Both the position numbers and the translations under genes were made by a program. This document shows positions 2,038 to 21,015 of a DNA stretch of 64,000 bases, in pieces. Every line of letters starts with the position of its first letter. The first letter of the stretch is position 1. The notes below the pieces were generated by a model. The model had not been told where the DNA came from. It made no database searches and saw only the letters and a list, made by a program, of their open reading frames with translations. Origin of the DNA: Gammaproteobacteria bacterium (GTDB lineage: Bacteria > Pseudomonadota > Gammaproteobacteria > Eutrophobiales > Eutrophobiaceae); the NCBI GenBank assembly GCA_011772965.1, contig WVYN01000050.1:155029-219028 (forward strand), read 5' to 3'.

Positions 2038-3162
2038 ATGAATGAAAAAATAAAAGCCAGACACCAGGAACTTTTATACTCACAGTTGTCTGTTTCTGTA
2101 TTAACAAGTATCGTCGCTGGCAGTTTCATTACCATCATGTTATGGGATGAGGTAGATCATGTTTTATTCAGTATCTGGCTGGCATTTTTTGTAATTGTGC
2201 TAATTTACCGTTTGTTAATTCTGTTATTTTTTAACAGAAGCAATGACACTTCTTCTCATCTTAATCTTTGGGATAATCTGAATTTTGCTGGCACGCTGAT
2301 GACGGGATTAATTTGGGGTTCTCTGACATTCTTTTATTCAAGTCTCTGGCCACCGGAAGTACAGATTTCCCTATGGGTTCTATTAATAGCATTGATGTCC
2401 GGTGCTAGTGCGAGTATATCGGTTGTATTGAAATATTACATAGCTTACTGCGCTCCTATTATACTTTTTTCATTTTATGTTCAATATGTTAATAAAAGTT
2501 ATTATTTAATCATTATTTTCTTTTTTTATACTCTATTACTTTCAATGACAGCAAGAAATTTCAGAAAACAGAATAATTTTATTATTGAACAGCAAATCAT
2601 GTTAATCGATGCCAATGACAAGCTGGAGGCACTAGCAACAAAAGATGCCTTGACAAACCTGCCAAACAGAAGGGCTTTTGAAAATTTATTCAGAAATGAA
2701 TGGGAGAGACATTTACGTTCAAAGAAGAATCTGTCTTTAATGATGCTTGATGTCGATTATTTCAAGAACTATAATGATCATTATGGACATAGCAAAGGTG
2801 ATGAATGTCTCAGATCAATCGCAAATATAATTCAGAAATCATTACTTCGTCCCTCTGATGTAGCAGCTAGGTATGGAGGTGAAGAATTTATTATCATCCT
2901 CCCTGAAACAAGCAATGAAGGTGCATTAGAGGTAGCTGAAAGGATCCACTATAACCTGAAAGTCATAAATATTCCCCATGAATATCCGAGACCTGATTCG
3001 AGACTTACTGTCAGTATTGGCATTGCAACCTTGATTCCAAAATCCGGAAAGGATTCAAAAGTATTGCAACTGCTTGCTGACAGAGAGTTATACAAAGCAA
3101 AAGCAAATGGAAGAAATTGCACATCCAGCAATGAAGAAATTGAAGAATCGACTAGTTATTAA
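2038..3162 (+). CDS. Membrane-anchored diguanylate cyclase (N-terminal multi-TM sensor region plus GGDEF domain; GGEEF active site and RxxD I-site present)
   Basis: RYGGEEFIIILPET motif with RPSD five residues upstream. Also LTNLPNRRAF and DVDYFKNYNDHYGH, classic GGDEF motifs. At least 5 predicted TM helices in the first 190 aa. Confidence 0.85.
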   Translation: MNEKIKARHQELLYSQLSVSVLTSIVAGSFITIMLWDEVDHVLFSIWLAFFVIVLIYRLLILLFFNRSNDTSSHLNLWDNLNFAGTLMTGLIWGSLTFFYSSLWPPEVQISLWVLLIALMSGASASISVVLKYYIAYCAPIILFSFYVQYVNKSYYLIIIFFFYTLLLSMTARNFRKQNNFIIEQQIMLIDANDKLEALATKDALTNLPNRRAFENLFRNEWERHLRSKKNLSLMMLDVDYFKNYNDHYGHSKGDECLRSIANIIQKSLLRPSDVAARYGGEEFIIILPETSNEGALEVAERIHYNLKVINIPHEYPRPDSRLTVSIGIATLIPKSGKDSKVLQLLADRELYKAKANGRNCTSSNEEIEESTSY

Positions 3163-4568: not shown

Positions 4569-5999
4569 TCATCCTTTAATACAAAGAACTGGTTGAAGCT
4601 TTGCTACTTTTCTTGCCAGACCAGCGTAATGAGCAGCATTGACCACTGCTTTGACATCCTTGTAAGCACCAGGTGCTTCTTCTGCAACTCCTCTTGAAGT
4701 AGGGCTTCTAATAATAATTCCACGTTCTGCAAGTTCATCAGTTACCTGTCTTCCGTGCCATGTTTTAAATGCTTTACGTCTGCTCATACTACGGCCAGCA
4801 CCGTGACATGCAGATGAAAATGACAACACATCATTACCAGTATTTCCTGCAAGGATGTAAGAAGATGTGCCCATGGATCCGCCAATCAGGACTGGCTGAC
4901 CTGATTGTTTGAATACAGTGGGAAGTTCTTCATGCCCGGGACTGAAAGCACGAGTTGCACCTTTCCTGTGAATGTAAAGTTGTTTTTCTTTGCCGTTAAC
5001 GATATGTTTCTCGAGTTTACAAGTATTATGAGAAACATCGAAAAGAAGATTTAAGTGTATTTCAGGGAAAAAATGCTTAAATACTTTACGGACAAGATGT
5101 GTAATTATCTGACGGTTTGCCAGTGCGCAATTTATAGCTGCACGCATGGCGCCCAGATAAGTTTTACCGACTGCGGATAAGAGGGGAGCGCAAGCCAGCT
5201 CACGATCAGGCAAGATAATCCCATGTTGAGAGGCAGTAATTACCATTCGCTTTAAAAATTCAGTTCCAATTTGATGGCCGAGACCGCGTGAACCACAATG
5301 AATGCTGATTACTATATCACCTTCAGTAATATTGAATACCTTTGAAGTGTTAATATCGTAGACTTTAACCACTTCCTGGACTTCCAGATAATGATTGCCA
5401 GAACCAAGGGTGCCCATTTCATCACGTTGTCTTTTCTTTGCATGATCTGAAACCTCAGAAGGTACTGCACCACTCATTCGTCCATTTTCCTCGATGCGCT
5501 CAAGATCAGCTGGTATACCATAGCCTGATTCGACGGCCCATTGCGCGCCACCTTCAAGCATGGAATCCATTTCTTTCTTGTTCAGATGAATATGACCTGT
5601 GCTGCCCACTCCAGCAGGTATATCACGAAAAAGAGAATCGGCGAGTTTCTTTTTTACTGGTTCTATGTCCTGTAGCGTCAACCCTGTCAGCAGGTTTCTG
5701 ACCCCACAGGATATATCAAACCCTACGCCACCGGCGGATACTATGCCGCCGTTATCCGGGTCGAATGCGGCCACTCCACCGATAGGAAATCCATATCCCC
5801 AGTGGGCATCCGGCATGGCGTACGCCGCCGAAACAATTCCAGGTAATTTGGCAACATTGATAATTTGTTCAGAGACCTTATCGTCCATCTGATCAATCAA
5901 ATCGGCATCTGCATAGATAATTGCAGGGACACGCATCTCACCATATGGTTCGATTTTCCAAGAATATTCAGTCAATTGAGTTAGTTGCTTATTATCCAT
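4569..5999 (-). CDS. rtcB: RNA 3'-phosphate/2',3'-cyclic phosphate RNA ligase RtcB
   Basis: 476 aa. Metal/GMP-binding motifs of the RtcB family are present (HCGSRGLGHQ, AHWGYGFPIGG, SACHGAGRSMSRRKAFK). Confidence 0.9.
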   Translation of the reverse strand: MDNKQLTQLTEYSWKIEPYGEMRVPAIIYADADLIDQMDDKVSEQIINVAKLPGIVSAAYAMPDAHWGYGFPIGGVAAFDPDNGGIVSAGGVGFDISCGVRNLLTGLTLQDIEPVKKKLADSLFRDIPAGVGSTGHIHLNKKEMDSMLEGGAQWAVESGYGIPADLERIEENGRMSGAVPSEVSDHAKKRQRDEMGTLGSGNHYLEVQEVVKVYDINTSKVFNITEGDIVISIHCGSRGLGHQIGTEFLKRMVITASQHGIILPDRELACAPLLSAVGKTYLGAMRAAINCALANRQIITHLVRKVFKHFFPEIHLNLLFDVSHNTCKLEKHIVNGKEKQLYIHRKGATRAFSPGHEELPTVFKQSGQPVLIGGSMGTSSYILAGNTGNDVLSFSSACHGAGRSMSRRKAFKTWHGRQVTDELAERGIIIRSPTSRGVAEEAPGAYKDVKAVVNAAHYAGLARKVAKLQPVLCIKG

Positions 6000-6026
6000 G
6001 AAAGCTTCCCGTTATATTTAACATTT

Positions 6027-6458
6027 CTAGACATCAATGACACATTGAGCCATCCATTTCCCGTTACTGTCCTTGTTCACCTTGAGTTCAGTATAGGTCG
6101 CACCTTTTACTTCCACTGCAGGTTGGTGCCTTGATATGTCAATTGGTTCTCCCCATGCAGTTGCTTTTAAACAAGAATTTTCTATATTTACGTCAAATTG
6201 GCTAAATAGCATATGTCTCACAGCGATTGCATATACCAACTCGTTTAACCAATCGACCAGTAACAGCTCATTATCGGGTGCTTCACAATATATATCCTGA
6301 CGAATCATGGGCTTAACTTTACTTACGTCACATATCGCCGCTATCATGGCAGTGGCTGCTTGGCTAAAAGCCATCTCAATAGTGTTACCATAACCCCTAA
6401 TCCCAATATCAGCTTCGTGGGCAAAATGCTCCCAATAGCATTCTTTTCTGTAGTTCAT
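6027..6458 (-). CDS. Archease (RtcB activator/chaperone)
   Basis: 143 aa. N-terminal (F/W)EHxAD(I/V)G(I/V)R(G/A)xG motif ([23 protein letters not shown]) is typical of archease. Sits immediately downstream of rtcB in the same orientation. Confidence 0.7.
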
Positions 6459-6597: not shown

Positions 6598-6987
6598 ATG
6601 CTAGACATAAGTCGCGATATAATCTGTCGCCTGATTATCCTTGCCAGGGAATTTCATGCCCAGGAAGAAGTTGTTATTCCTGAGAATCCAGTCAATCCAA
6701 GTGGTGACTGGGCACAGCAAATCCTGGCATCCCACTTGGACGATTCAACATTTAGTGAATTCAGCGCCATGGTGAGAGATTTGGAACCTGACCAACAACA
6801 TCAACTGGTAGCGCTGATGTGGTTGGGCCGCGGTGATTATTCACTAGATGAGTGGCATGAGGCAGTCTCATATGCCTCCGAAAATGCTTCCAGAAACACA
6901 CCACAGTACCTGATGGCTCATCCCCAGATTGCTGATTTCATGATGGAAGGTCTCGAAATTTTTGGAATTAGCTGTAATGAAGAATAA
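6598..6987 (+). CDS. Hypothetical protein (possibly DUF3775-like), divergent from the rtcB-archease unit
   Basis: ORF-track translation only. No motif I can name with certainty. Confidence 0.4.
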   Translation: MLDISRDIICRLIILAREFHAQEEVVIPENPVNPSGDWAQQILASHLDDSTFSEFSAMVRDLEPDQQHQLVALMWLGRGDYSLDEWHEAVSYASENASRNTPQYLMAHPQIADFMMEGLEIFGISCNEE

Positions 6988-7052: not shown

Positions 7053-7505
7053 TCAGTCTGAGCGCTTCTTGTATTCCTGCATCTGCTCCTTGTAAACAAG
7101 GGAGACCAGGTTGCCTAATTCTTCATAGATAAACCTCAAGAGGTCATCTGTAGCGAGTATGCCCGTCAACTTTCCTAATGAATCAGTAACAGGGAGGCGA
7201 CGGATTCCCTTCTCACGCATAAGATTAATGCTTTCAAAAAAACCATCGTCTTCTCTGATCACTACGGGGGAACGTGTCATTACATCTCCGATGGTGACCG
7301 AGTCTATGGGCACTTCCTCTGCAATAACTTCGATCATAATATCCCTGTCAGTGACAATCCCAACGGGTATTGAACCATCGCTATTCTGGGAAACAACTAC
7401 CAGTGAACCAACATGGTATTTACGCATCAATTTCGAAGCTTCAACGATGCCCATATCGGTGGTTGCCGTGATGACATTTCGAGTACAGTATTTTCCGATA
7501 TTCAC
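7053..7505 (-). CDS. CBS-pair domain protein
   Basis: 150 aa. Two CBS-like repeats (VITATTDMGIVEASKLMRKYHVGSLVVV... and VMTRSPVVIREDDGFFESINLMREKGIRRLPV). Confidence 0.7.
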   Translation of the reverse strand: MNIGKYCTRNVITATTDMGIVEASKLMRKYHVGSLVVVSQNSDGSIPVGIVTDRDIMIEVIAEEVPIDSVTIGDVMTRSPVVIREDDGFFESINLMREKGIRRLPVTDSLGKLTGILATDDLLRFIYEELGNLVSLVYKEQMQEYKKRSD

Positions 7506-7625
7506 AGTCTTTTCATTTTATAAGTGGTTGAATATAATAATATAACCTTTATACATGACCAGGCATACAATTTTATTGATCTAGATCAGTTATTTTCGTT
7601 TTTATTAAACAGTATAATTAAGCCT

Positions 7626-8795
7626 ATGAATAATATAACAAAACGGCTTTTCTGGGGCATTATTGTTTTACTTATCCTGTTTTTATCCATCTGGTATTTT
7701 ACCCGTCCCAAGCCGGTTACTGTTTCTCTTTATACTGTTACAAAAGGCAAGGTTGAAAAAACCGTTGCAAACACCAGGGTAGGAACAGTAAAAGCATGTC
7801 GTCGCTCGATGGTTGCCCCGGGTGTCGGGGGCGAAGTCTCAAATCTTCTTGTAACAGAAGGTAATAGTGTCGAGAAAGGCCAGATACTTATAGAGCTTTG
7901 GAACGATGATCTCAAGGCTAAATTAAAACTTGCCGAGGCAGAGAAGCTTAGCGCAAAGGCCCGTGTGGAAGAACTCTGTCGCATTGCATCCGGGGCCAAG
8001 CGTGAACTTAGAAGGGTTAAACGTCTGTCTAAAGACAATATGATATCCGAAGAACTGGTTGACAAGGCGCAAACTGAATTTGAGGCGACCAGTGCAGCTT
8101 GCGAAGGAGCAAAAGCCCAGATTAATGTCAGTGATGCCCAGATAGAGATGACACGCGCCGCTCTGGAAAGGACTATTATAAGAGCACCATTCAAGGGCAT
8201 CGTTGCGGAAGTCAATGCAGAAATTGGTGAATTTGCAACACCATCTCCCCTTGGTATCCCGACACTACCGACAATTGATCTCATCGACACAAGCTGTATG
8301 TATATCAGTGCACCGATTGATGAAGTTGATGCTCCGCCGATAGCACTGGGTATGAATGCCTGTGTTCATCTGGATGCATTTCCAGAGCGCAGATGTAATG
8401 GTAAAGTACGTCGAATTGCGCCTTATGTACTGGATACCGAAAAACAGGCAAGAACGGTAGAAGTTGAAGTTGTTATTGTAGATCCTGAAGATCTTGAGGG
8501 ATTATTGCCTGGATATAGTGCTGACATTGAAATATATCTTGATGTCAAAACTGATGTTTTGAGGATCCCGACCGAAGCGGTGCTTGAAGGTTACCGCGTT
8601 TATCTTTACAACCCTGAGACAACTAGTATCTCTGAACGCAAGTTTAAACCCGGGATTGCCAACTGGAATTACACGGAGGTTAAATCAGGTCTTGAAGCGG
8701 GTGATAAAATTGTGCTTTCTGTCGGAAGAGAAGATGTCAAACCCGGTATTAAGGTCATACCGGAAATGAATGAGAAAAATTTACCTCTTCTATGA
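7626..8795 (+). CDS. Efflux transporter periplasmic adaptor subunit (HlyD/MacA/RND-MFP family)
   Basis: N-terminal TM anchor, coiled-coil segment, beta-barrel/lipoyl-like motifs (IRAPFKGIVAEV). Start moved to ATG 7626 (MNNITKRLFWGIIVLLILF), inside the longer track ORF that begins at 7524. Confidence 0.8.
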   Translation: MNNITKRLFWGIIVLLILFLSIWYFTRPKPVTVSLYTVTKGKVEKTVANTRVGTVKACRRSMVAPGVGGEVSNLLVTEGNSVEKGQILIELWNDDLKAKLKLAEAEKLSAKARVEELCRIASGAKRELRRVKRLSKDNMISEELVDKAQTEFEATSAACEGAKAQINVSDAQIEMTRAALERTIIRAPFKGIVAEVNAEIGEFATPSPLGIPTLPTIDLIDTSCMYISAPIDEVDAPPIALGMNACVHLDAFPERRCNGKVRRIAPYVLDTEKQARTVEVEVVIVDPEDLEGLLPGYSADIEIYLDVKTDVLRIPTEAVLEGYRVYLYNPETTSISERKFKPGIANWNYTEVKSGLEAGDKIVLSVGREDVKPGIKVIPEMNEKNLPLL

Positions 8796-9466
8796 TCCTG
8801 TTAAACGGGATAAGCCGGGATTTCTTGCTCGGAGATACGACAGTTCATGCTCTCTCGGATATTAATCTCGAGATTGGCCAGGGTGACTATCTGTCCATCA
8901 TGGGCCCCTCGGGTTCCGGTAAATCTACCCTGTTGAATATTATTGCCTTGTTGGATAGGCCTAGTAAAGGCAGCTATCTTCTTAATCAGAAAAATGTTAT
9001 CGGTTTGCATGATGAAGAATTGGCAAAAATTAGGCGCGAAAACATCGGTTTCGTATTCCAGTTTTTCCATCTCATTCACCGTTTGACCGCGGCAGAAAAT
9101 GTCGGGATTCCACTAATACTCTCAGGTATGCCTCCACAGGAAAGGCGTGAGAGGGTAGAAGCGGTGATGGAATCATTCGGGCTTGCAGAGAGAACTCATC
9201 ACAAGCCCGATCAACTGTCAGGCGGTGAGCGACAACGTGTTGCAATTTGCCGAGCTATGATTATGCATCCAACAGTTATTCTCGCGGATGAACCTACAGG
9301 AAACCTGGATCAGGTAACAGGTCGTCAGGTCATAGACTTGCTTGAAGATCTGAACAAGGAAGGCGTGACATTAATTGTTGTCACGCATGATGTAGATATA
9401 GGCAAACGGGCAAGACGCCGTTTACGTCTTGTTGATGGGCGCATTGTTGAGGATATTAGGAACTAG
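8792..9466 (+). CDS. ABC transporter ATP-binding protein (MacB/LolD-like NBD)
   Basis: Walker [10 protein letters not shown], signature [14 protein letters not shown], Walker [13 protein letters not shown]-loop. 4-nt overlap (ATGA) with the adaptor gene. Confidence 0.9.
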
Positions 9467-9470
9467 CTCA

Positions 9471-10676
9471 ATGCGGTACATTGATAATTTAAATCTCGCA
9501 TTTAATGCAATTGGAGCACATCATGTACGAACCTTGCTTATCCTCATAGGAATTTCTATCGGGGTTAGTTCTGTCATTCTTCTAACTGCCCTGGGTGATA
9601 GTGCGCGCCGGTATGTTATTAGTGAATTTGCAGCATTGGGTACAAATCTCATCGTAATTCTACCGGGCCGTTCCGAAACAACAGGTGGGCCACCGCCATT
9701 AATGGGGGAAACACCACGTGATTTGACCGTTGATGATGCCATGTCCTTATTGCGCTCCTATAACATTTCCCGGGTTGCGCCAATAACCGTGGGCTCAACT
9801 CCAGTTAACTATCAGGGCCGCGAAAGAGTAGTTGATGTCATCGGCACTACTGCAGATATGAAAGAAATACGTCATTTGGAAATGGCGCAAGGTGATTTTT
9901 TGCCGAGAACTGATCCACGTGAAGCGTCTCCGGTTTGCGTAGTTGGCGAAAAAATCCGTAAGGAATTATTTGGCCCGGAAAAATCTTTGGGGGAATGGTT
10001 GCGTACTGGGAATCGGCGCTGTCGGGTGATCGGAATAATAAAATCCACGGGAGTATCTATTGGTGTCGATCTGGATGATATTGTTATTATTCCCGTTGCT
10101 TCAGCCCAGATACTGTTTGATTCACCGGGATTGTTTCGGGTATTGGTAGAGGCAAAAAGATCATCATTAATCGGGGCTGCATCAGAAGATGCCCGCCAAA
10201 TAATCAAGGACCGTCATGAAGGTGAAGACGATATCACCATTATTACCCAGGATAGTATTATTGCCACATTCGACAAGATATTAAGCACATTAACCTATGG
10301 CCTAGCCGGTATCGGTACAATTAGTCTTGCAGTCGCCGGCATATTAATCATGAATGTTATGCTGGTCTCGGTGGCACAACGCCGAAATGAAATTGGTTTG
10401 CTCAAAGCAATAGGCGCTCCCAAACATGAAATATTAAAACTCTTTATTAGTGAGGCTTTGTTATTTTCAGTCTCTGGAGCGTTACTGGGATTATTACTTG
10501 GTCTTGGTGCAACAGAAATTATAAAACGCTTATATCCCACTTTCCCGGTTGCTGTCCCTGCCTGGGGAATCATAGCGGCATGTGGTATAGCGATTATTAC
10601 GGGTGTTTTATTTGGCGTACTTCCTGCAAAAAGAGCAGCCGAACTCGATCCAATTCTGGCATTGGAAAAACACTAG
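9471..10676 (+). CDS. ABC transporter permease, FtsX/MacB family (periplasmic MacB-PCD plus 4 TM)
   Basis: N-terminal TM, large periplasmic domain, three C-terminal TM helices characteristic of FtsX-like permeases. Start placed at ATG 9471 (MRYIDNLNLAF...) just after the ATPase stop. Confidence 0.8.
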   Translation: MRYIDNLNLAFNAIGAHHVRTLLILIGISIGVSSVILLTALGDSARRYVISEFAALGTNLIVILPGRSETTGGPPPLMGETPRDLTVDDAMSLLRSYNISRVAPITVGSTPVNYQGRERVVDVIGTTADMKEIRHLEMAQGDFLPRTDPREASPVCVVGEKIRKELFGPEKSLGEWLRTGNRRCRVIGIIKSTGVSIGVDLDDIVIIPVASAQILFDSPGLFRVLVEAKRSSLIGAASEDARQIIKDRHEGEDDITIITQDSIIATFDKILSTLTYGLAGIGTISLAVAGILIMNVMLVSVAQRRNEIGLLKAIGAPKHEILKLFISEALLFSVSGALLGLLLGLGATEIIKRLYPTFPVAVPAWGIIAACGIAIITGVLFGVLPAKRAAELDPILALEKH

Positions 10677-10679
10677 CAT

Positions 10680-11879
10680 ATGACTTTTATCGACCTTGCA
10701 AAATTGTCATTAGGTGCTGTTTTTGCTTATAAATTACGTTCGGCGCTAACCGTTCTTGGAATTCTTGTCGGTATAGGTTCTGTGGTCATACTTACATCGA
10801 TAGGAGAAGGTGTGCGGGTTTATGTTGTGAATGAATTTACCCAGTTTGGCACCAATATTGTTGCAGTTGTGCCTGGGAAAACAGAAACTTTTGGAATTTC
10901 AGGTGCCACCATAAGTACGGTTCGTCCCTTGACAATAGATGATCTTGAATCTTTGAAAAGATTAAATAATGTTATTGCTGTTGTACCCGTAGTCCAGGGA
11001 AATGCGAATGTCGAATTTGGATCCCGTAGTCGTCGCACAATTGTCCTGGGCGTAAACTCCAAGGTCCCCGAAGTCTGGAAGATGCCAGTTAGAAGTGGCC
11101 GTTTTCTGCCGGAGGATAATATGCGCGCATCACGGGCTTTTGCGGTCTTGGGTTCGAAAATGCGGGATGAATTATTTGGCAATACAAACCCGCTTGGCCA
11201 GCGAATTCGTGTTGGTGGAGATCGTTACCGGGTTATTGGTGTAATGGCACCAAAGGGACAGCTCCTAGGATTTGATCTGGATGACACCATTTATCTGCCT
11301 ATTGATAAGGCCCTGGAAATGTTCAATCGGGAAGGACTTATGGAGATTGATGTACTTTATGAAGGAGGCATCTCAGTTGATAAACTTACAGAAAATATCA
11401 AGCGAAATCTGATTGCAAGACATGGCGATGAAGATTTTACCATCATTACCCAGGACAAGATGCTGGACGTACTTGGATCAATTCTTGATATTCTGACACT
11501 CGGTGTTGCAGCAATTGGTGGTATTTCCTTGTTGGTAGGAGCGGTAGGTATTTTGACAATTATGACTATATCCGTAACCGAGAGAATTTCAGAAATTGGG
11601 CTCTTGCGCGCATTGGGAGCGAGACGCTCTCATATTCTGCATTTATTTCTTGGAGAGGCAGTATTTCTCAGTGTCATAGGAGGTTTATTAGGAGTGCTTG
11701 CTGCAATAGTCTCGGTCTTCATGCTGAAGTTTTTTTTACCGTCCTTGCCAATAGAGATTGCATGGATTTATGTCATAACAGCATTGGTTCTGGCTTTACT
11801 CATCGGCGTAATTACAGGGATCATACCAGCCATACGTGCGGCATCCATGCAACCTCTAGAGGCATTAAGAACAGAATAG
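10680..11879 (+). CDS. Second ABC transporter permease, FtsX/MacB family (paralogue of preceding gene)
   Basis: Same architecture as the preceding permease, with a parallel motif GEGVRVYVVNEFTQFGTNIVAVVPGKTE. Confidence 0.8.
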   Translation: MTFIDLAKLSLGAVFAYKLRSALTVLGILVGIGSVVILTSIGEGVRVYVVNEFTQFGTNIVAVVPGKTETFGISGATISTVRPLTIDDLESLKRLNNVIAVVPVVQGNANVEFGSRSRRTIVLGVNSKVPEVWKMPVRSGRFLPEDNMRASRAFAVLGSKMRDELFGNTNPLGQRIRVGGDRYRVIGVMAPKGQLLGFDLDDTIYLPIDKALEMFNREGLMEIDVLYEGGISVDKLTENIKRNLIARHGDEDFTIITQDKMLDVLGSILDILTLGVAAIGGISLLVGAVGILTIMTISVTERISEIGLLRALGARRSHILHLFLGEAVFLSVIGGLLGVLAAIVSVFMLKFFLPSLPIEIAWIYVITALVLALLIGVITGIIPAIRAASMQPLEALRTE

Positions 11880-12117: not shown

Positions 12118-13008
12118 TCAGATGAATAATCCCGGAAAGTGAGAAGTACATGCCATGACGTGTGTAATGGCATTGGTATCATATTTGTCACCTGATCGGT
12201 AATCCTCAAAAAACTTATTAAGAGTTTTTACCTTGTCCGGCCATTTATCCCAGGACTGCAATCCGAGTGAGATACCATAATTTGTAAAAGCAAATTTTAT
12301 TTCCTGCCATCCTGGTTGCCGACAAAAAAAACCTGGTTTCTCGATCCAGAGCTGCTCAAGTTGTTGAAGACTCCTTTTTTTCTGTATAAGTGACCATTCC
12401 TCATTCGGCAAAAAATGGCAGAGCCAGAGCATCATGCCCAGGCCAAGGTCCTGATCTATAATAAGTTTATTGTAAGTCTGGGATATCAGCTGATACATGT
12501 CATTGATTTCAGAAGCGAGGATATCTTCATCTAGCAGTTTGTAAACAACATAGCCATCATAGGCATCCATCGCCCCAAGACCATAACCGGGATAGGCACC
12601 GGAAAGGTCTTCTTCCATTTTCCAGATTACCCCAAGACCAGGTATTACGAAATGTGAATGTATTTGTTTCACGAGTTTGATGGCTTCACTCTGATAACTG
12701 GATTTTAGCCTGCCCAGGCAGATCAGCGCATAGAGCCACATGGCAAGATAATGATAGTACTGGCCGTCCCGATCCTCCGCTTCGCCGATGCGTAATCCTG
12801 CCTGTCGCCCGAGCACACGGTAAACTTCTGTTACCAGATTTTCCGCCTTGTTGAGCCAGGAAATATCACCTGTATGTTCATAGAGAGAGACATAGAGCAC
12901 CACCCCGAAAGCATCGGTCCATAGGTAACGCAGACCGCTTGGCCAGATTTCATTATCTTCCATCCATTGAAGTTTTCTTGTAATGTATGAAATTTCTTCA
13001 AGCGGCAT
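12118..13008 (-). CDS. Hypothetical protein, 296 aa, Trp/Tyr-rich, no recognisable domain
   Basis: Long clean ORF on the minus strand immediately downstream of the PIMT-Ere fusion gene. Confidence 0.5.
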   Translation of the reverse strand: MPLEEISYITRKLQWMEDNEIWPSGLRYLWTDAFGVVLYVSLYEHTGDISWLNKAENLVTEVYRVLGRQAGLRIGEAEDRDGQYYHYLAMWLYALICLGRLKSSYQSEAIKLVKQIHSHFVIPGLGVIWKMEEDLSGAYPGYGLGAMDAYDGYVVYKLLDEDILASEINDMYQLISQTYNKLIIDQDLGLGMMLWLCHFLPNEEWSLIQKKRSLQQLEQLWIEKPGFFCRQPGWQEIKFAFTNYGISLGLQSWDKWPDKVKTLNKFFEDYRSGDKYDTNAITHVMACTSHFPGLFI

Positions 13009-13042: not shown

Positions 13043-15037
13043 TTATAACCCGAATGGAAATGTTTCTGGCATTCCAATTCCTGCTTCGGGGCCGAGAGCA
13101 TCAACAGCACGAGTTTCATCAAACCAGATATACTCATCGAATTGGCGGGGCAGGGAAGCATTGAAATAATGACTTTGCAATTCGGTCTCGGGACGATATA
13201 TCACGCCAATAGCTCGTTCCAGACGTGGTCGGGAGAGTTCCTTTACAACTCTCTGACTACGGTCCTTTAAAGGCAGCATAAAGGCATTGAGACCGGAATC
13301 ATGACATAACCGTTCGTAACTCTCCGGGTGTGAGGGACGCACTGTCTTGATCTCCATTGGTGCGCCCCAGTCTGAAGCTGCGGCAACCGTTCCTGTGTGG
13401 GTGCCGAAACCGATCAGGTAGGCAGCCTCTGCAAATTCCTTGCGGCAAAGATGACCGACATTTATCTCTCCCCGGACTCCCATGTCCGTTGCTGCCGCAT
13501 CCCCAATATGTGAATTATGTTCCCAGATAACCGCTCTTGCCTCGGGACCGTGAAAATCCAGTAAACTCTTGAGAGTTTCGAACATGTGCTCGTCACGGAA
13601 ATTCCATGATTCACGCGATCCCAGGTACATGATGCGGTAATATTGTTCTGCGTTTTTCACAAGCCGCGCATTTGAAACAGCATCCAGGAACCGTCGTCCG
13701 TCCTGTTCTGCATAGACCAGCCGTTTTTGCATTAATGCATTCAGCATGGCAACAACCTCTTTTTCACAACCCTTGTGTTTACCGGTTAGAGCTGCCGCGC
13801 CATAGGTGGACGGATCTGTCTCCCAGGGTGTCAGGCAACCATAACGGTGACGGGCAACCGCTGCAGTTTCTGCATCGACACCTTCCAGATAATTGATAAC
13901 AGAATTAATAGAGGAATACAGGCTGTAAAGATCCAGTCCATAAAAGCCAACTCTGTCATCAGTATTTGAAAAGCGCTCGTTGTAGTGGCGCAGCCATTTC
14001 ACGAATTCAAGCACCTGAAAGTTAGCCCACATCCAGGTGGGAAAACGGGAAAAGGTGGTTTCTTCAGTTGCTTCCAGCCGCGTATCACGGACAAAATGAT
14101 CAATCTGGGCCGCATCGGGCCAATCAGCCTCTACAGCGACAAAGCGGAAGCCTTTATGCTGTATAAGTTCCTGGGTAATCCGGGCACGCATCTGGTAGAA
14201 CTCCGCAGTCCCGTGTGAAGCCTCGCCCAGCAGGACGAGTCTGGCATCACCAATACGCCTAAGCAAACCAGAGAGGTCAACGCTGTCAATTGAGGGAATA
14301 TGGATTGCAGACATTTCTACCAGTTCAGAGACCGGTTGTGGTTTAGTGACGGGTTCCTTCCTGAGTCTGGGCTTGATTTCTTCCTTGACTTCCTCCCAGC
14401 CTTCTTCCCCGATTAGAGGAACGAAACGGACAGCGCCAAGTTCTTCAATTTCCACCTCTTCCTGATCAGTCCGGGTAATGCGTATCAGTGTCTGCTCTCT
14501 GGTGGAGGGACCGGTCGGGATTACCAGCCGTCCACCAACAGCAAGTTGTTCAATCAGTGAGCGTGGTGCTTCCGGTCCGCCTGCGGCTACAATAATAGCG
14601 TCATAAGGCGCATGTTCAGGCCAGCCAAGGGTTCCGTCACCGCATAAGACGTGGACATTATCGTATTTTAGTTGCTTTAACCGGTTTTCTGACTGGAGGG
14701 CAAGGCTCTGATGGCGTTCAATGGTATACACGTCCCTGGCAATCCGCGACAGAATGGCGGCTGCATAGCCGGACCCTGTTCCGATTTCCAGGACCCTGTC
14801 ATCCGGCCCCAGTTGCAGGGCTTCGGCCATAAGTGCCACGATATAGGGCTGGGATATGGTCTGACCCTCCTCGATAGGCAGGGGCGTATCGTCATAGGCG
14901 AATTCGAGTAGATGGACACCGACAAATTTTTCCCTTGGCACTGTGGCCATGGCTGTCAATACCGCGTTATCCTGAATACCCCTGCTTTTGAGAAGACTGA
15001 TGAAGGCAGCCTTGTCGTATTTAATCAATTTTTCCAC
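13043..15037 (-). CDS. Bifunctional-architecture protein: N-terminal protein-L-isoaspartate O-methyltransferase (PCMT/PIMT) domain fused to C-terminal erythromycin-esterase-like (Ere/ChaN-like) domain
   Basis: N-terminus has SQPYIVALM..VLEIGTGSGYAAAIL..DAIIVAAGGPE, the PCMT SAM-binding motifs. C-terminal ~400 aa has GEASHGTAEFY, FYGLDLYS and IWEHNSHIGD, matching Ere-family motifs. Confidence 0.8.
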   Translation of the reverse strand: MEKLIKYDKAAFISLLKSRGIQDNAVLTAMATVPREKFVGVHLLEFAYDDTPLPIEEGQTISQPYIVALMAEALQLGPDDRVLEIGTGSGYAAAILSRIARDVYTIERHQSLALQSENRLKQLKYDNVHVLCGDGTLGWPEHAPYDAIIVAAGGPEAPRSLIEQLAVGGRLVIPTGPSTREQTLIRITRTDQEEVEIEELGAVRFVPLIGEEGWEEVKEEIKPRLRKEPVTKPQPVSELVEMSAIHIPSIDSVDLSGLLRRIGDARLVLLGEASHGTAEFYQMRARITQELIQHKGFRFVAVEADWPDAAQIDHFVRDTRLEATEETTFSRFPTWMWANFQVLEFVKWLRHYNERFSNTDDRVGFYGLDLYSLYSSINSVINYLEGVDAETAAVARHRYGCLTPWETDPSTYGAAALTGKHKGCEKEVVAMLNALMQKRLVYAEQDGRRFLDAVSNARLVKNAEQYYRIMYLGSRESWNFRDEHMFETLKSLLDFHGPEARAVIWEHNSHIGDAAATDMGVRGEINVGHLCRKEFAEAAYLIGFGTHTGTVAAASDWGAPMEIKTVRPSHPESYERLCHDSGLNAFMLPLKDRSQRVVKELSRPRLERAIGVIYRPETELQSHYFNASLPRQFDEYIWFDETRAVDALGPEAGIGMPETFPFGL

Positions 15038-15260
15038 TACCAGGAACCCCCTGCTTCAAAGCCACCAGAAAGCCTGGTGACAACCATTTCCTGTTTAATA
15101 TTTTTAAAAATCAATTGGTTAAGTGTAACCACTTTACCACAAATTAAATTTGCGAAACCTGATCTAAATCAATAAATATAATGAAAAACATGCGTATGTT
15201 TACAAATGAAAAAACAGTAAATATCTTATCTAAAATCATGTAAACAGGAGTGGAATCAGG

Positions 15261-15731
15261 ATGCTTAAAAAACTGTGTGATTATCTGGACAAGCATAATA
15301 TTCGCTACCTTACCATGCGACATTCTCCTGCAATTACTGCCCAGGAGATTGCCGAAGCAGCACATATCCATGGACAGGAGTTTGCAAAAACCGTGATAGT
15401 AAATCTTGATGGAAATCTGGTTATGGCGGTGTTACCGGCTTCAGAAAAGCTGGATACGGATTTGCTATTAACCGCGGGCCATGGGGAGAAAGCAGAACTG
15501 GCAGGGGAGAGCGAATTTCAGAATCGATTTCCGGAATGCGAGGTAGGCGCAATGCCACCTTTCGGCAATCTTTTTGATATGGATGTCTATATTGAAGAAA
15601 GCATGACTTCAAATAACAACATTACTTTCAATGCGGGCACACACACTGAACTGATTCAAATGTCAATGGAGGATTTTCTAAACCTGCTGCAACCCAGTGT
15701 AGTGCGGATATGCAAATCCTATACTGAATGA
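15261..15731 (+). CDS. YbaK/ProX-like aminoacyl-tRNA deacylase domain protein
   Basis: 156 aa. Weak-to-moderate resemblance to the YbaK/EbsC fold sequence pattern. No strong motif. Confidence 0.5.
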   Translation: MLKKLCDYLDKHNIRYLTMRHSPAITAQEIAEAAHIHGQEFAKTVIVNLDGNLVMAVLPASEKLDTDLLLTAGHGEKAELAGESEFQNRFPECEVGAMPPFGNLFDMDVYIEESMTSNNNITFNAGTHTELIQMSMEDFLNLLQPSVVRICKSYTE

Positions 15732-15870
15732 TTCGTCCCTTGTTTTGCCTATTTTTTAAACCTGGTTTCACAGATTAGCTTTCCCGGTATGGGATATCAT
15801 CTATTGGTTGAAAGATATAAGATATATACAGCCTTAAGTGCTGCAAACTCATATTTGGAGATTTGTCTCA

Positions 15871-18264
15871 ATGAAGGAAAGCACCTCTCATATAATCTGG
15901 TTCGATCAGATTAGCAGGGGTGATGTCTCGCGAGTCGGCGGCAAGAATGCATCTCTCGGGGAGATGATTGTCGCGCTGAAAAAGGAACGAATTCAGGTCC
16001 CGGAAGGTTTTGCTACAACTGCTGATGCTTACTGGATATTTGTCTCGGCAAATAAACTGGAAGTAGTAATCAAGGAAAATCTCTCCAAATTACACTCCAA
16101 TCAAATCGAACTTTCACATGCCGGTCTGTCCATTCGAAATGCCTTCTATCGAAGCAAGTGGCCAGATCAGACTATATCCGAAATTCAGGCCGCCTATGAA
16201 TTGTTATCTGATAAAACTGGTAAAGCAAACGTTGATGTTGCGGTCCGATCAAGCGCAACTGCTGAAGATTTACCTGAGGCAAGTTTTGCCGGACAACAGG
16301 AAAGTTTTTTAAATATTCGCGGTGAAGATGCATTACTTGATGCCTGTCGCAAGTGTTATGCTTCTCTTTTTACTGACAGGGCTATCAGTTACCGGGAAGC
16401 AAAGGGATTTGATCATTTAAAAGTCGCTCTTTCAATTGGTATACAAAAAATGGTCCGTTCTGATCTTGGCAGTGCTGGTGTCATGTTCAGTATCGATACG
16501 GAAACCGGATTTAATAAGGTTGTAGTCATCAATGCAGCATGGGGCCTGGGTGAAAATATTGTCCAGGGAACAGTTGATCCGGATGAGTACCTGGTATTCA
16601 AGTCATTGCTGGGAAATGATAATTTTTATCCAATCATTGAAAGAAAACTCGGCAGCAAGAAACAGAAAATGATATATACATCAAAGGGTGATATACCTAC
16701 ACAAAATATTTCCACCTCTTCATCAGAACGTGATGCTTTTGTACTGGATGATCCGCTAATTCTTCAATTGGCAAAATGGGCCTGCATTATCGAAAAGCAT
16801 TATGGCATACCCATGGATATTGAATGGGCCCGTGATGGAGAAACCGGGGAATTATTTATCGTCCAGGCCCGACCAGAGACGGTACAATCCCAGAAAGCTG
16901 TGTCTTCATTTAGGTCCTGGCAAATTGAATCGGGTGGCAAAAAACTCGGCAAGGGGCTTGCCATCGGGCAGGGCGTGGTGTCTGCACCGGTATGCATAAT
17001 AAATAACTCACAAGATATTGAACATTATGTTGATGGTACGATACTGGTCACAGAGACAACTGATCCTGACTGGGTGCCGGTAATGAAAAATGCGGCAGCC
17101 ATCATTACTGATTATGGTGGTCGTACATCGCATGCTGCTATAGTCAGTCGTGAGCTGGGATTACCGGCCATTGTTAGTGCGGGTAATATGACCAGTATCC
17201 TGAAAAATAATCAGATTATTACCGTTTCCTGCGCTGAGGGTGATGAAGGATATATCTATGATGGCAAGGTGCAATTCAGCGTGGAAGAAATCGAAATTGG
17301 GAGTATTCCTTCCACAAGGACAAAAATCATGCTTAACTTGGCCAACCCGGCTGCTGCATTCAAATGGTGGCGTATTCCGGCAGATGGCATCGGCCTTGCA
17401 CGAATGGAATTTGTCATAAACAACTATGTCAAGGTTCACCCTATGGCACTGGTTCATTTTTCTGATCAGAGAAATGAATTAGTAAAAAGAGATATTGAGA
17501 AATTAACATACGGCTACAAGGTAAAAACTGATTATTTTGTGGATAGATTGTCACTAGGGCTTTCACGCATAGCTGCTGTCTACTATCCAAATCCTGTAAT
17601 CATTCGCATGAGTGATTTCAAGACCAATGAGTATGCAAACCTCATTGGTGGTTCTGATTTTGAACCTCATGAAGAAAATCCAATGCTGGGATTCAGAGGG
17701 GCTTCGCGTTATTACTCGCCATTATATAAGGCCGGCTTTGCACTTGAATGCAAGGCGATACGACGACTTCGTGATGAAATGGGGTTTAAAAATGTGATCG
17801 TAATGATTCCGTTTTGTAGAACAGTTGAGGAAGCAGACCTGGTGTTGAAGGCCATGTCTGAAAATGGATTAACCCGTGGAGAGGACGGAATGGAGGTTTA
17901 TGTCATGTGTGAAATCCCGTCCAATGTAATTTTAGCCAGGGAATTTGCGAAACGTTTTGACGGCTTTTCGATCGGCAGTAATGACTTAACACAGTTAACA
18001 TTGGGAATAGACCGGGATTCGAGTGAGCTTTCTGGAATCTTCGATGACCAGAATGAGGCGGTTCGCTGGATGATCGAACGTGCAATCAAGGAAGCGCATG
18101 CCGGCGGGGCAAAGATAGGCCTGTGTGGTCAGGCACCCAGCGATCATCCCGAGTTTGCAGCTTTCCTTGTAAATTGTGGGATTGATTCCATATCGGTAAC
18201 ACCGGACAGTTTCCTAGAGGTAAAACGTCACGTTGCGACCGCAGAAAAGGCATCAGCCGATTAA
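15871..18264 (+). CDS. ppsA: Phosphoenolpyruvate synthase (pyruvate, water dikinase)
   Basis: DVSRVGGKNASLGEMI N-terminus, phosphohistidine domain (GGRTSHAAIVSRELGLPA), C-terminal PEP-utilising TIM barrel. Start moved to ATG 15871 (MKESTSH). Confidence 0.95.
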   Translation: MKESTSHIIWFDQISRGDVSRVGGKNASLGEMIVALKKERIQVPEGFATTADAYWIFVSANKLEVVIKENLSKLHSNQIELSHAGLSIRNAFYRSKWPDQTISEIQAAYELLSDKTGKANVDVAVRSSATAEDLPEASFAGQQESFLNIRGEDALLDACRKCYASLFTDRAISYREAKGFDHLKVALSIGIQKMVRSDLGSAGVMFSIDTETGFNKVVVINAAWGLGENIVQGTVDPDEYLVFKSLLGNDNFYPIIERKLGSKKQKMIYTSKGDIPTQNISTSSSERDAFVLDDPLILQLAKWACIIEKHYGIPMDIEWARDGETGELFIVQARPETVQSQKAVSSFRSWQIESGGKKLGKGLAIGQGVVSAPVCIINNSQDIEHYVDGTILVTETTDPDWVPVMKNAAAIITDYGGRTSHAAIVSRELGLPAIVSAGNMTSILKNNQIITVSCAEGDEGYIYDGKVQFSVEEIEIGSIPSTRTKIMLNLANPAAAFKWWRIPADGIGLARMEFVINNYVKVHPMALVHFSDQRNELVKRDIEKLTYGYKVKTDYFVDRLSLGLSRIAAVYYPNPVIIRMSDFKTNEYANLIGGSDFEPHEENPMLGFRGASRYYSPLYKAGFALECKAIRRLRDEMGFKNVIVMIPFCRTVEEADLVLKAMSENGLTRGEDGMEVYVMCEIPSNVILAREFAKRFDGFSIGSNDLTQLTLGIDRDSSELSGIFDDQNEAVRWMIERAIKEAHAGGAKIGLCGQAPSDHPEFAAFLVNCGIDSISVTPDSFLEVKRHVATAEKASAD

Positions 18265-18277
18265 TGAATTACAAATA

Positions 18278-18601
18278 ATGAAAAAAAAGAGCACCAGAAA
18301 GAAATCTATCGCCAAACAAAAGAAATGGTCTCAAAAAGTCACTGAGGAAAGTCATGCATTGGAGCTGGAAGAGGGTGTGTTTACACTCAAGGATCCTTCT
18401 GAAATTGCCAAATCTCTCAAGCGTTCAGCCAACCAGAGTAAACAAAGAAAATCTGATCCCTTCCGATCTGCGATGTCGATGCTTACATTTTATATCAACC
18501 GCGCAGGCAAGCAGTTACCCGAGACACAAAGAGCAAAGCTGGAGGCGGCAAAAGATGAACTGAGAACAGTTTTTTGTAAACCACGAAAGAAAACGAAATG
18601 A
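18278..18601 (+). CDS. DUF3175 domain protein
   Basis: About 107 aa from ATG 18278. Pattern WSQKVTEESHALELEEGVF..DPSEIAKSLKRSA..SAMSMLTFYINRAGK matches DUF3175 as I recall it. Confidence 0.5.
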   Translation: MKKKSTRKKSIAKQKKWSQKVTEESHALELEEGVFTLKDPSEIAKSLKRSANQSKQRKSDPFRSAMSMLTFYINRAGKQLPETQRAKLEAAKDELRTVFCKPRKKTK

Positions 18602-18684
18602 TCTTTATGAATTCAATATTCGATATTAGATAAATTAAAAGTAGTTATTACCAGAAAAATAATATTGCACTAATTAATGAGGAA

Positions 18685-19116
18685 TTGATCATGTCACTTT
18701 TATGCGTTGTGGCCGGGCAGAGCCGGGTAAGATTTTTTATTCAGGAAAGCGCCGGGAAACCTTTGGAGGAAATGCCTGGTTTGGAGAATCCAGAAGGTCG
18801 TCTGCATAAACGGGATCTGACCAGTGATCGTCCCGGTCGCACCTTCGATAGCAAAGGTGCAACGCGACATGCAAAAGAACAGAAAACTGATGTTAAAAAA
18901 CAGATCGCCATCAATTTTGCCAAGCAAATCACTTCTTATCTGGAAGACAGAATGAATGAATATAATGAGTTGGTGTTGATTGCACCACCAGCATTTCTTG
19001 GTTTGTTACGTGAAAACCTGCACGAGAACCTGGTGAAACTTGTAGCCAGGGAAATCGACAGGGACATTGTGTCCAGTGATGTAAAAGAGATTCAACAGTA
19101 TTTGGAAAAATTCTGA
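18685..19116 (+). CDS. Host-attachment-protein family protein (PF10116-like)
   Basis: Pattern DRPGR..S.G..RHA.E......FAK.I...L....L.L.APP.FLG.LR is characteristic of this family. Confidence 0.6.
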   Translation: MIMSLLCVVAGQSRVRFFIQESAGKPLEEMPGLENPEGRLHKRDLTSDRPGRTFDSKGATRHAKEQKTDVKKQIAINFAKQITSYLEDRMNEYNELVLIAPPAFLGLLRENLHENLVKLVAREIDRDIVSSDVKEIQQYLEKF

Positions 19117-19185
19117 TCGCTGATAAATTCCCGTATCTCTTTACTACCTCATTGTTTTATATCAGGGCATACTTATACTCTTAAC

Positions 19186-21015
19186 ATGAGAAAATTTGTC
19201 GAATATTACAGTCCTGGTGATATTTCCACCTATATCTGGGATACCAAGTACCGTTATAAAAACGCCGATGAGACAGGTGATAAAAGCATTGAAGATACCT
19301 GGCGAAGAGTAGCCACCGCACTAGCCAGTGTCGAATCTGATCCCGGAAGGTGGCAAAACAGTTTCTATAATGCCTTAAAGGATTTCAGATTCATCCCCGG
19401 GGGGCGTATCCTTGCCGGCGCCGGAACTGACTACAGGGTGACCTTGTTTAACTGTTTTGTGATGGGCAATATTAATGATTCCATTGACGGTATCTTCAAT
19501 GCTCTTAAAGAGGGCGCCATCACCATGCAACAAGGCGGTGGTGTAGGATATGATTTCTCAACTTTACGTCCCCATGGTACACAGGCCCGCCAGGTCAACC
19601 GTATGGCATCCGGACCTGTCTCGTTTATGCGGATCTGGGATTCGATGTGCCAGACTCTGGTCTCATCCGGGCCAAGGCGCGGTGCCATGATGGCGACTCT
19701 GCGCTGTGACCATCCCGATATTGAAAATTTCATCAACAGCAAGCGCGACAGCCTCGAACTACGCAATTTCAATATCTCTGTGCTGGTCACAGATGAATTC
19801 ATGCAGGCCATTCATAACGATCTGGACTGGCCACTGGTATTCCCGACAAGCGGACTAGAACAAGATGAAAAGTGCAACAAGCGCGATATCATTAAAAAGC
19901 AATGGTCCGGCAGATATGAGCCAGTTCCCTGCAGGATATTCCGCATTGTTAAAGCACGCTCTCTATGGGACCAGATAGTCAGCGCCAGTTACCATTCCGC
20001 AGAACCCGGTGTCTTGTTTATTGATCGGATAAATCGCCTAAATAACCTTTGGTACCATGAGAATATTGGTGCGACCAACCCTTGCGGTGAAATCCCCCTG
20101 CCGGCATACGGTGCCTGTGACCTGGGTTCTATAAACCTGACACGATTCATAAAAAATCCATTTACCACGACTGCAAGCCTCGACCTGGACGGAATAAAAA
20201 ATATAGTCCCACTTGCTGTGCGCATGCTGGATAACGTGATAGATGTGTCCCGCTTTCCGTTACCTGAACAGAAACGGCAGGCAAGGAATACACGCCGTGT
20301 TGGCTTGGGACTTACCGGTCTGGCTGACGCCCTTATCATGCTTGGTTTCAGCTATAGTGAGGAAAGCGCCCGTGATCTTGCAGGAACCATAATGCAGACG
20401 ATTAACCATACCGCATACCGTTCATCCATTAAGCTGGCGCAGGAAAAGGGAAGTTTCCCCCTGCTGGACAAGAATAAGCATCTTGAGGGCGAATTCATCA
20501 AAACACTGCCCGCTGATATTTGTAATGCAATCAGCCAGCATGGTATTCGCAACAGCCACCTTACGGCGATTGCTCCTACGGGTACCATCAGCCTGTTGGC
20601 CGGAAACCTCTCCAGTGGTATCGAGCCGGTTTTTGCATTCGAGCAACAGCGCTATATTCTACAAAATGATACTCGCAAGCCTTATCAACTTGAGGATTAT
20701 GCCTGGAGATTATGGCAGCAAACAGGCAATGGAAATCCTCCCAGAAAAACTTTCATTTGCGCACAAGAGCTGGAACCAGAAATGCATCTTCGGATGCAGG
20801 CTGCTATACAGGCACATGTTGACAACAGTATTTCCAAAACAATCAATATTCCGGTTGAATATGATTTTTCAGAGTTCAAGTCGGTGTATGAACTAGCATA
20901 TCAGCTGGGCCTGAAAAGCTGCACGGTATTCCGTCCAAACCCGGTGACTGGAGAAGTATTGCGTTCAAGAAAAGAACCCCTGGAGGGCGAACATTGTTGT
21001 AATGTTTTCCTGTGA
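19186..21015 (+). CDS. nrdJ: Adenosylcobalamin-dependent (class II) ribonucleotide reductase, short ~600-aa form
   Basis: Class II motifs WDTKYR, NPCGEIPLPAYGACDLGSINL and GGGVGYDFSTLRP. C-terminal CC pair. Confidence 0.85.
   Translation: MRKFVEYYSPGDISTYIWDTKYRYKNADETGDKSIEDTWRRVATALASVESDPGRWQNSFYNALKDFRFIPGGRILAGAGTDYRVTLFNCFVMGNINDSIDGIFNALKEGAITMQQGGGVGYDFSTLRPHGTQARQVNRMASGPVSFMRIWDSMCQTLVSSGPRRGAMMATLRCDHPDIENFINSKRDSLELRNFNISVLVTDEFMQAIHNDLDWPLVFPTSGLEQDEKCNKRDIIKKQWSGRYEPVPCRIFRIVKARSLWDQIVSASYHSAEPGVLFIDRINRLNNLWYHENIGATNPCGEIPLPAYGACDLGSINLTRFIKNPFTTTASLDLDGIKNIVPLAVRMLDNVIDVSRFPLPEQKRQARNTRRVGLGLTGLADALIMLGFSYSEESARDLAGTIMQTINHTAYRSSIKLAQEKGSFPLLDKNKHLEGEFIKTLPADICNAISQHGIRNSHLTAIAPTGTISLLAGNLSSGIEPVFAFEQQRYILQNDTRKPYQLEDYAWRLWQQTGNGNPPRKTFICAQELEPEMHLRMQAAIQAHVDNSISKTINIPVEYDFSEFKSVYELAYQLGLKSCTVFRPNPVTGEVLRSRKEPLEGEHCCNVFL

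Follow-up and report, generated by a model that had tools for sequence, protein, structure and literature searches.

A 64,000-nucleotide stretch of a gammaproteobacterial genome assembly (family Eutrophobiaceae; GenBank assembly GCA_011772965.1, contig WVYN01000050.1, forward-strand positions 155,029 to 219,028; hereafter the window, in whose own numbering positions are given) encodes on its reverse strand a 664-amino-acid protein in which a protein-L-isoaspartate O-methyltransferase (PCMT, or PIMT) is joined to a hydrolase of the erythromycin-esterase (Ere) family. As an initial annotation had proposed from the letters of the sequence, two complete domains lie in one genuine reading frame, with near-full and full profile matches to PF01135 and PF05139, and with catalytic and substrate-binding motifs kept in both. 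Comparison with homologues showed that purifying selection has been strong, on each half as well as on the architecture itself. Tentatively, and with somewhat less than even confidence, we read the protein as a cytoplasmic, two-headed damage-control enzyme for stress and non-growth, in which the tethered Ere head would process residues marked by the PIMT head.

The gene is a single unbroken open reading frame (ORF) in the ORF listing (13043-15037, reverse strand), with no internal stop and with a GTG start codon just preceded by a G-rich stretch. That two separate genes were merged by an assembly error or a frameshift is next to inconceivable, and we found no point in support of it. GC content at third codon positions (GC3) is unremarkable for the ORF (z = 0.49). 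The closest relative among the matches listed is a 98%-identical, full-length copy on an independent contig of a mud-derived gammaproteobacterial metagenome-assembled genome (locus L007), and the architecture recurs in the best 120 protein clusters, in the best 80 loci and in complete plasmids and chromids. Recurrence, at the same length, in hundreds of independent assemblies and in complete replicons of cultured strains such as Sinorhizobium meliloti 1021 rules such an artefact out. Recent horizontal transfer, considered on the raised GC content (0.51 vs 0.46), was likewise unsupported, as GC3 is not an outlier.

The 120 best clusters are 62-98% identical to the window protein, nearly all 660-670 amino acids long, and both Pfam domains are present in every one. 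A scan covering a single genome for each species recovered at least 572 stretches encoding a relative, of which the best 80 were examined; the fusion was found in 77 non-redundant species-genome loci. In the best 80 it is full-length wherever the contig allows, mostly at ~60% identity, and occurs in Gamma-, Beta-, Alpha- and Deltaproteobacteria, Nitrospira, Binatia, Chloroflexota, Gemmatimonadota, Acidobacteriota and Sulfurovum. The phyletic spread of the fusion, a question raised in the initial annotation, therefore takes in many phyla and >100 clusters. Among 50%-identity cluster representatives, full-length fusions were found down to ~36% identity, and 130 plasmid or chromid records hold one, including S. 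meliloti 1021 pSymB (NC_003078.1, 96557-98530, L091; 54% identity), with a further copy at CP073680.1, 99254-101230 (L090). Look-up of the exact window protein sequence returned no record, and the database product name of its relatives, where annotated, is 'protein-L-isoaspartate(D-aspartate) O-methyltransferase' only. In one Candidatus Binatus locus (L067, 11911-12018), a 36-residue stretch ~4 kb downstream of the intact gene resembles the final 35 residues of the fusion protein (67% identity) and may be a gene remnant.

The N-terminal head matches PF01135 at residues 10-212 (E = 6.2e-65; 219 bits against a cut-off of 20.3; profile positions 4-209 of 210), exceeds the NCBIfam cut-offs of both the Pcm equivalog NF001453 (256 bits vs 188) and TIGR00080 (223 bits vs 159), and is 50% identical to Escherichia coli Pcm (PDB 3lbf) over 199 residues. 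Every motif quoted in the initial annotation was recovered at its expected position: VLEIGTGSGY, motif I for S-adenosylmethionine (SAM), at residues 82-91 and DAIIVAAGGPE at 146-156 in the methyltransferase, and GEASHGTAEFY at 271-281, FYGLDLYS at 365-372 and IWEHNSHIGD at 504-513 in the hydrolase. Across 47 fusion homologues, E84, G86, G88, S89, G90 and Y91 are invariant, as is E107, which supplies the acidic residue that had been noted after motif I. The segments QTISQPYIVA (59-68, with TISQP at 60-64) and AVRFVPLI (202-209) are identical or near-identical to those of 3lbf in alignment; we take TISQP(Y) to be the substrate-carboxyl-binding segment and VRFVPL to be the C-terminal segment whose role is known from PIMT structures. 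By all sequence tests, the N-terminal half thus belongs to the bacterial Pcm/PIMT family (EC 2.1.1.77), with the equivalog cut-off passed by its 212 residues and with SAM- and isoaspartate (isoAsp)-binding motifs kept. By architecture it does not, since canonical Pcm is a single domain of ~210 amino acids, whereas the fusion is a 664-residue protein with an extra 450-residue hydrolase domain; surE/nlpD-type genes were not seen among the scanned window ORFs. Within the window, a phmmer search of six-frame ORFs gave no further pcm or ere gene. Two Nitrospirales loci do hold a stand-alone PCMT gene ~5 kb from the fusion (L061, 12942-13775; L054, 9828-10607; both on the reverse strand), so that the fusion is an additional, specialised paralogue there.

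The C-terminal head was called Ere-like in the initial annotation, and a profile search agrees, matching PF05139 (Erythro_esteras) at residues 292-642 over the entire profile (1-358 of 358; E = 1.2e-132, 443 bits). Alignments to PDB entries place the start of the fold nearer residue 248, thus taking in GEASHG (271-276). Profile matches were obtained to 2rad (1e-28), 2qgm (4e-28) and EreC 6xcq (9e-6; 8.8e-6 unrounded), with a single-sequence search giving a marginal match to EreC over ~100 residues (E = 1.6e-3). The reported catalytic set of this metal-independent, water-activating hydrolase is E47, H50, E78, R261 and H289 in EreC numbering (PMC7979712). E272, H275 and E303 of the fusion line up with EreC E47, H50 and E78 in direct alignment, and WEHNSH (505-510) lines up with WGHNGH of Bacillus cereus 2rad, making H507 or H510 the counterpart of H289. 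The EreC alignment stops short of the region of R481, which sits 26-29 residues before the HNSH motif; the basic residue that stabilises the transition state in EreC is R261. All six residues (E272, H275, E303, R481, H507 and H510) are invariant in the same 47 homologues. The full-length Pfam match and the retained equivalents of E47, H50, E78 and H289 identify the C-terminal half as a member of the PF05139 family, which comprises EreA-D and the B. cereus proteins BcR135 and BcR136 (PDB 2rad/3b55 and 2qgm), but not as an EreA-D resistance enzyme.

The name of the Pfam family and the conserved catalytic residues might nonetheless suggest an erythromycin esterase for macrolide resistance whose fusion to Pcm is incidental. 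Such an identity is highly improbable: the Ere head scores 30.3 bits against the EreB profile (NF000209/NF000516 set; cut-off 750) and 17.1 bits against EreD (cut-off 800), its match to EreC is marginal, and it is closer to BcR135 and BcR136. These closest solved relatives are described as remote from the Eres that hydrolyse macrolides, and are credited only with esterase activity on small substrates such as p-nitrophenyl butyrate, their natural substrate being not known (PMC7979712). The gene also sits in a chromosomal housekeeping and stress setting in which annotation of the window showed no resistance or mobile-element genes.

Between the two heads, residues 206-232 have a predicted local distance difference test (pLDDT) score below 50 in an AlphaFold2 model made with a homologue alignment as input, suggesting a disordered linker of ~30 residues; both domain cores are well predicted and a minor lobe of the Ere head (401-457) poorly so. 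No column between L208 and R261 is invariant among the fusion homologues. The linker had been described as acidic, which holds for its conserved start (GEEGW, continuing here as GEEGWEEVKEE) and fails for the variable, mixed-charge stretch rich in Lys, Arg and Pro that follows; residues 206-250 comprise 9 D/E, 6 K/R and 6 P. In the model the two domains are thus connected by a flexible tether, and no interface between them is predicted with confidence; a tether of this kind could allow both heads to reach the same polypeptide.

Table 1. Positions in the window of the fusion gene, its domains and motifs, its partner gene and a candidate promoter.
Feature	Position	Strand	Basis or remark
PCMT-Ere fusion ORF	13043..15037	-	664 aa; stop codon 13043-13045; same-length homologues at 100% coverage
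PCMT/PIMT domain, residues 10-212	14402..15010	-	PF01135, NF001453, 50% identity to E. coli Pcm 3lbf
TISQP segment of PCMT domain	14846-14860	-	
SAM motif I VLEIGTGSGY	14765-14794	-	
Inter-domain linker, residues 213-247	14297..14401	-	AlphaFold2 pLDDT, conservation, composition
Erythromycin-esterase-family domain, residues 248-664	13046..14296	-	PF05139; alignment to 2rad/2qgm and EreC 6xcq
GEASHG (E272, H275) of Ere domain	14210-14227	-	
E303 of Ere domain	14129-14131	-	
WEHNSH of Ere domain	13508-13525	-	
Partner gene, 296-aa protein	12118..13008	-	34 nt after fusion stop codon; predicted (alpha/alpha)6 barrel
Candidate weak sigma-70-like promoter upstream of fusion gene	15175..15202	-	9/12 consensus match; divergent intergenic region shared with YbaK-like gene

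In the mechanism that we tentatively prefer, the N-terminal head would act as an ordinary PIMT, performing SAM-dependent methylation of L-isoaspartyl residues of aged proteins at their alpha-carboxyl, and the C-terminal head would be an active, metal-independent hydrolase, with His275, Glu303 and His507 or His510 activating water and Glu272 orienting His275. The flexible tether of ~30 residues would keep the hydrolase beside the polypeptide just marked by the methyltransferase, where it would process the product of the methylation, perhaps by hydrolysing the succinimide ring or by removing methyl esters unable to cyclise, and the unit would often work with a co-transcribed (alpha/alpha)6-barrel protein. 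The initial annotation had suggested a self-contained methylation/demethylation or damaged-protein processing cycle. Isoaspartyl methyl esters decay spontaneously to the succinimide within minutes, so that a plain demethylase would be redundant and its cycle futile, which argues against a simple methyl-ester/esterase cycle. Hydrolysis of the succinimide is slow and for the most part regenerates isoAsp, which makes repair by PIMT inefficient; a hydrolase directed at the succinimide, or at esters that fail to cyclise, would add something. We know of no enzyme for the succinimide-opening step. The processing-cycle idea appears to be favoured by ~60% identity across phyla, by the invariant catalytic residues of the Ere head and by the flexible tether, and it is plausible that the hydrolase would act on the ester or succinimide products of the methyltransferase. 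What we infer is that both heads are enzymatically active and, most of all, that they are coupled on a single substrate. A more ambitious proposal is that the Ere head performs the second step of isoaspartate repair, as a succinimide (aspartimide) hydrolase or an isoAsp-methyl-ester processor steering the residue to Asp, with the barrel protein as a third component, in a dormancy-phase proteome-maintenance module shared modularly with proteins of the type of Mycobacterium tuberculosis Rv2030c; in this specific form the proposal is speculative and we regard it as unlikely.

The barrel protein is the 296-residue product of the gene that follows the fusion on the same strand (Table 1). Sequence searches of Pfam, NCBIfam and the PDB returned nothing significant for it and its fold alone is informative, with AlphaFold2 predicting an (alpha/alpha)6 barrel at a pLDDT of 91.6 and a predicted template modelling (pTM) score of 0.91. 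Its family has 3788 detectable members, 'hypothetical' wherever named. Of the 76 non-redundant fusion loci whose sequence extends far enough downstream, 28 have a close homologue of the partner (identity of 50% or more) on the same strand and no more than 200 nt away, and 13 have a distant homologue (26-35% identity) downstream, placing the partner directly downstream of the fusion in about half of the loci; in a further 6 a homologue lies elsewhere in the locus, and 29 have none within 6 kb. The cluster lists of the fusion and of the partner point the same way, as many of their entries agree in the size of the longest contig carrying them. In one locus (L075), a PEBP-family gene (PF01161; 2262-2735, forward strand) lies between the fusion and a distant barrel homologue; in L061, the genes between the stand-alone PCMT and the fusion include those for a universal stress protein (Usp), an alpha-amylase-family protein and a distant homologue of the barrel protein.

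Several observations weigh against the coupling of the two heads. Members of its Ere subfamily (45-63% identical) often stand alone or are joined to phosphoribosyltransferase (PRTase) or dienelactone-hydrolase (DLH)-like domains: with domains assigned by phmmer to the top 150 cluster representatives, Ere was found alone in 98 (some of them fragments), as PCMT-Ere in 43, as PRTase-Ere in 5, and as DLH-Ere and PRTase-DLH-Ere in 2 each. A crude neighbour-joining tree of Ere domains, only suggestive as it carries no support values, mixes the stand-alone, DLH-fused and PRTase-DLH-fused forms with the PCMT-fused ones. A split version, with pcm and ere as adjacent genes, was considered and rejected, as the stand-alone Ere relative P0132 (63% identical) has no pcm gene beside it. 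Neighbourhoods are not conserved beyond the partner gene, homologues in Pseudohongiella, Marinobacter and S. meliloti having unrelated neighbours; the AlphaFold2 model of the fusion gives no confident docking of its two domains (pTM 0.58); and the predicted fold of the partner is typical of carbohydrate-acting enzymes, with no obvious fit with protein repair. Such promiscuous partnering suggests that the hydrolase probably has a function independent of PIMT products.

These observations could also reflect two independent, co-expressed activities, with the Ere domain hydrolysing an ester or lactone of small size, or some other damaged metabolite, that builds up in non-growing cells; its fusion to PIMT would then reflect no more than a need for both during the same stresses. 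Consistent with this, the subfamily occurs alone or fused to PRTase, to DLH or to both; the nearest solved relatives, BcR135 and BcR136, act on small esters (PMC7979712); no docking is predicted; and the partner gene would encode a carbohydrate-enzyme fold. However, even between phylogenetically very remote carriers the fusion has stayed whole and highly identical, and 43 of the 150 top representatives have it, which exceeds what is usual for loose co-regulation; the GEEGW start of the linker is also conserved. We treat independent activities as the main rival, a credible one though one we would sooner doubt than accept.

A third possibility is damage triage, in which the Ere-fold domain would be a peptidase that removes, rather than repairs, isoAsp proteins recognised by the PIMT head. 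The wider group of the Ere fold presumably includes the TIKI/TraB proteases, and genes for FtsH and other proteases recur near PCMT-Ere and PRTase-Ere genes. A precedent comes from human PCMTD1, whose PCMT-like domain is reported to serve as an isoAsp recognition module for degradation (PMC12590147). Yet the PF05139 match comes with esterase-type E/H/E/H residues, no peptidase family was matched in Pfam or NCBIfam, and the PIMT head keeps every catalytic motif, unlike a degenerate recognition module, making triage improbable. Returning to the two-headed damage-control enzyme, a hydrolase permanently tethered to a PIMT, and conserved across many phyla including the genetically tractable S. meliloti, would be a testable candidate for help in the succinimide step. 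Should the heads prove independent, the fusion still points to recurrent, uncharacterised stress and dormancy modules in which an Ere-like hydrolase is combined with PIMT, PRTase or an alpha/beta-hydrolase, often with a barrel partner.

The alternative fusions to PRTase, to a DLH-like alpha/beta-hydrolase or to both were found in the representatives P0140, P0197, P0201, P0202, P0213, P0218, P0251, P0135 and P0263. The PRTase family PF00156 has no match in the window protein and is present in P0197, P0201, P0202, P0213 and P0251; the Ere domain is 38-50% identical to those of PRTase-Ere representatives over ~410-430 residues. PRTase-Ere genes adjoin genes for BON, FtsH and Usp proteins (L088, L089).

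When all ORFs of the 80 loci were clustered, Usp genes were neighbours of the fusion in 18 loci, HSP20 genes in 10 and PEBP genes in 7; class II ribonucleotide reductase (RNR), baeRF12 and DksA/TraR each occurred in 6, and FtsH and an APH-AAA_33 kinase each in 5. Single loci also have BON, polyphosphate kinase, dodecin and CBS genes. On S. meliloti pSymB the fusion gene is flanked by small DUF1328, PepSY and hypothetical genes, and the barrel partner is absent.

The window itself is ordinary chromosome, with genes for MetH, citrate synthase, SMC, LigA, an NadB-like and a DegP-like protein, LepA, RF3, RNase E/G and PlsX; those near the fusion comprise an RtcB-archease pair, a CBS protein, a MacAB-type efflux system and a divergent YbaK-like deacylase. 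The RtcB RNA ligase and archease (4569-6458, reverse strand) form an RNA-repair module that adjoins DUF3775 (6598-6987, forward) and the CBS-pair protein (7053-7505, reverse). The efflux operon (7524-11879, forward) encodes an HlyD-like adaptor, an ABC ATPase and two paralogous MacB/FtsX permeases, and is convergent with the barrel gene, ending ~240 nt from it. On the other side, a YbaK/EbsC-like protein with an aminoacyl-tRNA editing domain (15261-15731, forward) is divergent from the fusion, a position kept only in the closest relatives (L001, L007 and L008). In scans for promoters and terminators, match numbers in the region of the fusion gene were not above shuffled expectation. Beyond the YbaK-like gene, a run of forward-strand genes (15838-21015) encodes a PEP-synthase-like enzyme, DUF3175, a baeRF12/Host_attach protein and class II RNR, a content reminiscent of hypoxia and dormancy regulons; the last three have the same arrangement in a close relative (L001/L002), and all four were found by tblastn in L007. 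A GGDEF diguanylate cyclase ORF (2038-3162, forward) has a GC content of 0.35 (z = -3.1 vs other window ORFs) and may have been acquired from elsewhere.

The fusion is not new as a sequence family, being already in public databases under a one-domain name; annotation by the N-terminal domain alone hides the second domain of such proteins. What is new is that a PIMT repair enzyme is extended by a hydrolase and accompanied by a partner gene. In the searchable literature we found no account of a PCMT-Ere fusion, of an enzyme hydrolysing protein succinimides or of the gene in S. meliloti, and the sole paper with both 'erythromycin esterase' and 'isoaspartate' concerns graspetide loci, unrelated to the fusion. 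Homologues of PIMT associated with ribosomally synthesised and post-translationally modified peptides, which install aspartimide (TIGR04188 for graspetides, TIGR04364 for FxLD), share the methyltransferase fold and the chemistry from methyl ester to succinimide, but the fusion scores far below their cut-offs (104 vs 380 and 119 vs 320, respectively); ATP-grasp, lanthipeptide and precursor genes were absent from its neighbourhoods in the window and the related loci. Conceptually, the nearest known pair of a protein carboxyl methyltransferase and a methylesterase is CheR/CheB, a pairing of the kind that the initial annotation had suggested. In that system the target is Glu and the activities belong to two regulated proteins, whereas in the fusion the target would be isoAsp and both heads lie on one polypeptide, with no homology to CheR or CheB in Pfam or NCBIfam and no chemotaxis context. 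A further comparison is with M. tuberculosis Rv2030c, a DosR-controlled protein of the hspX operon, reported to combine PRTase and Ere domains, whose function is not known (PMC4410610, PMC3110807). The PRTase-Ere relatives, likened to Rv2030c by its reported architecture, share the Ere subfamily (Ere domains 44-50% identical to that of the fusion by query-to-hit identity) and a Usp, BON and FtsH setting, and the window and related loci likewise have CBS, HSP20, Usp and class II RNR genes. The N-terminal partner differs, being PRTase in Rv2030c and PCMT in the fusion. The recurrent set of Ere modules to which the fusion belongs includes the architecture reported for this mycobacterial dormancy gene.

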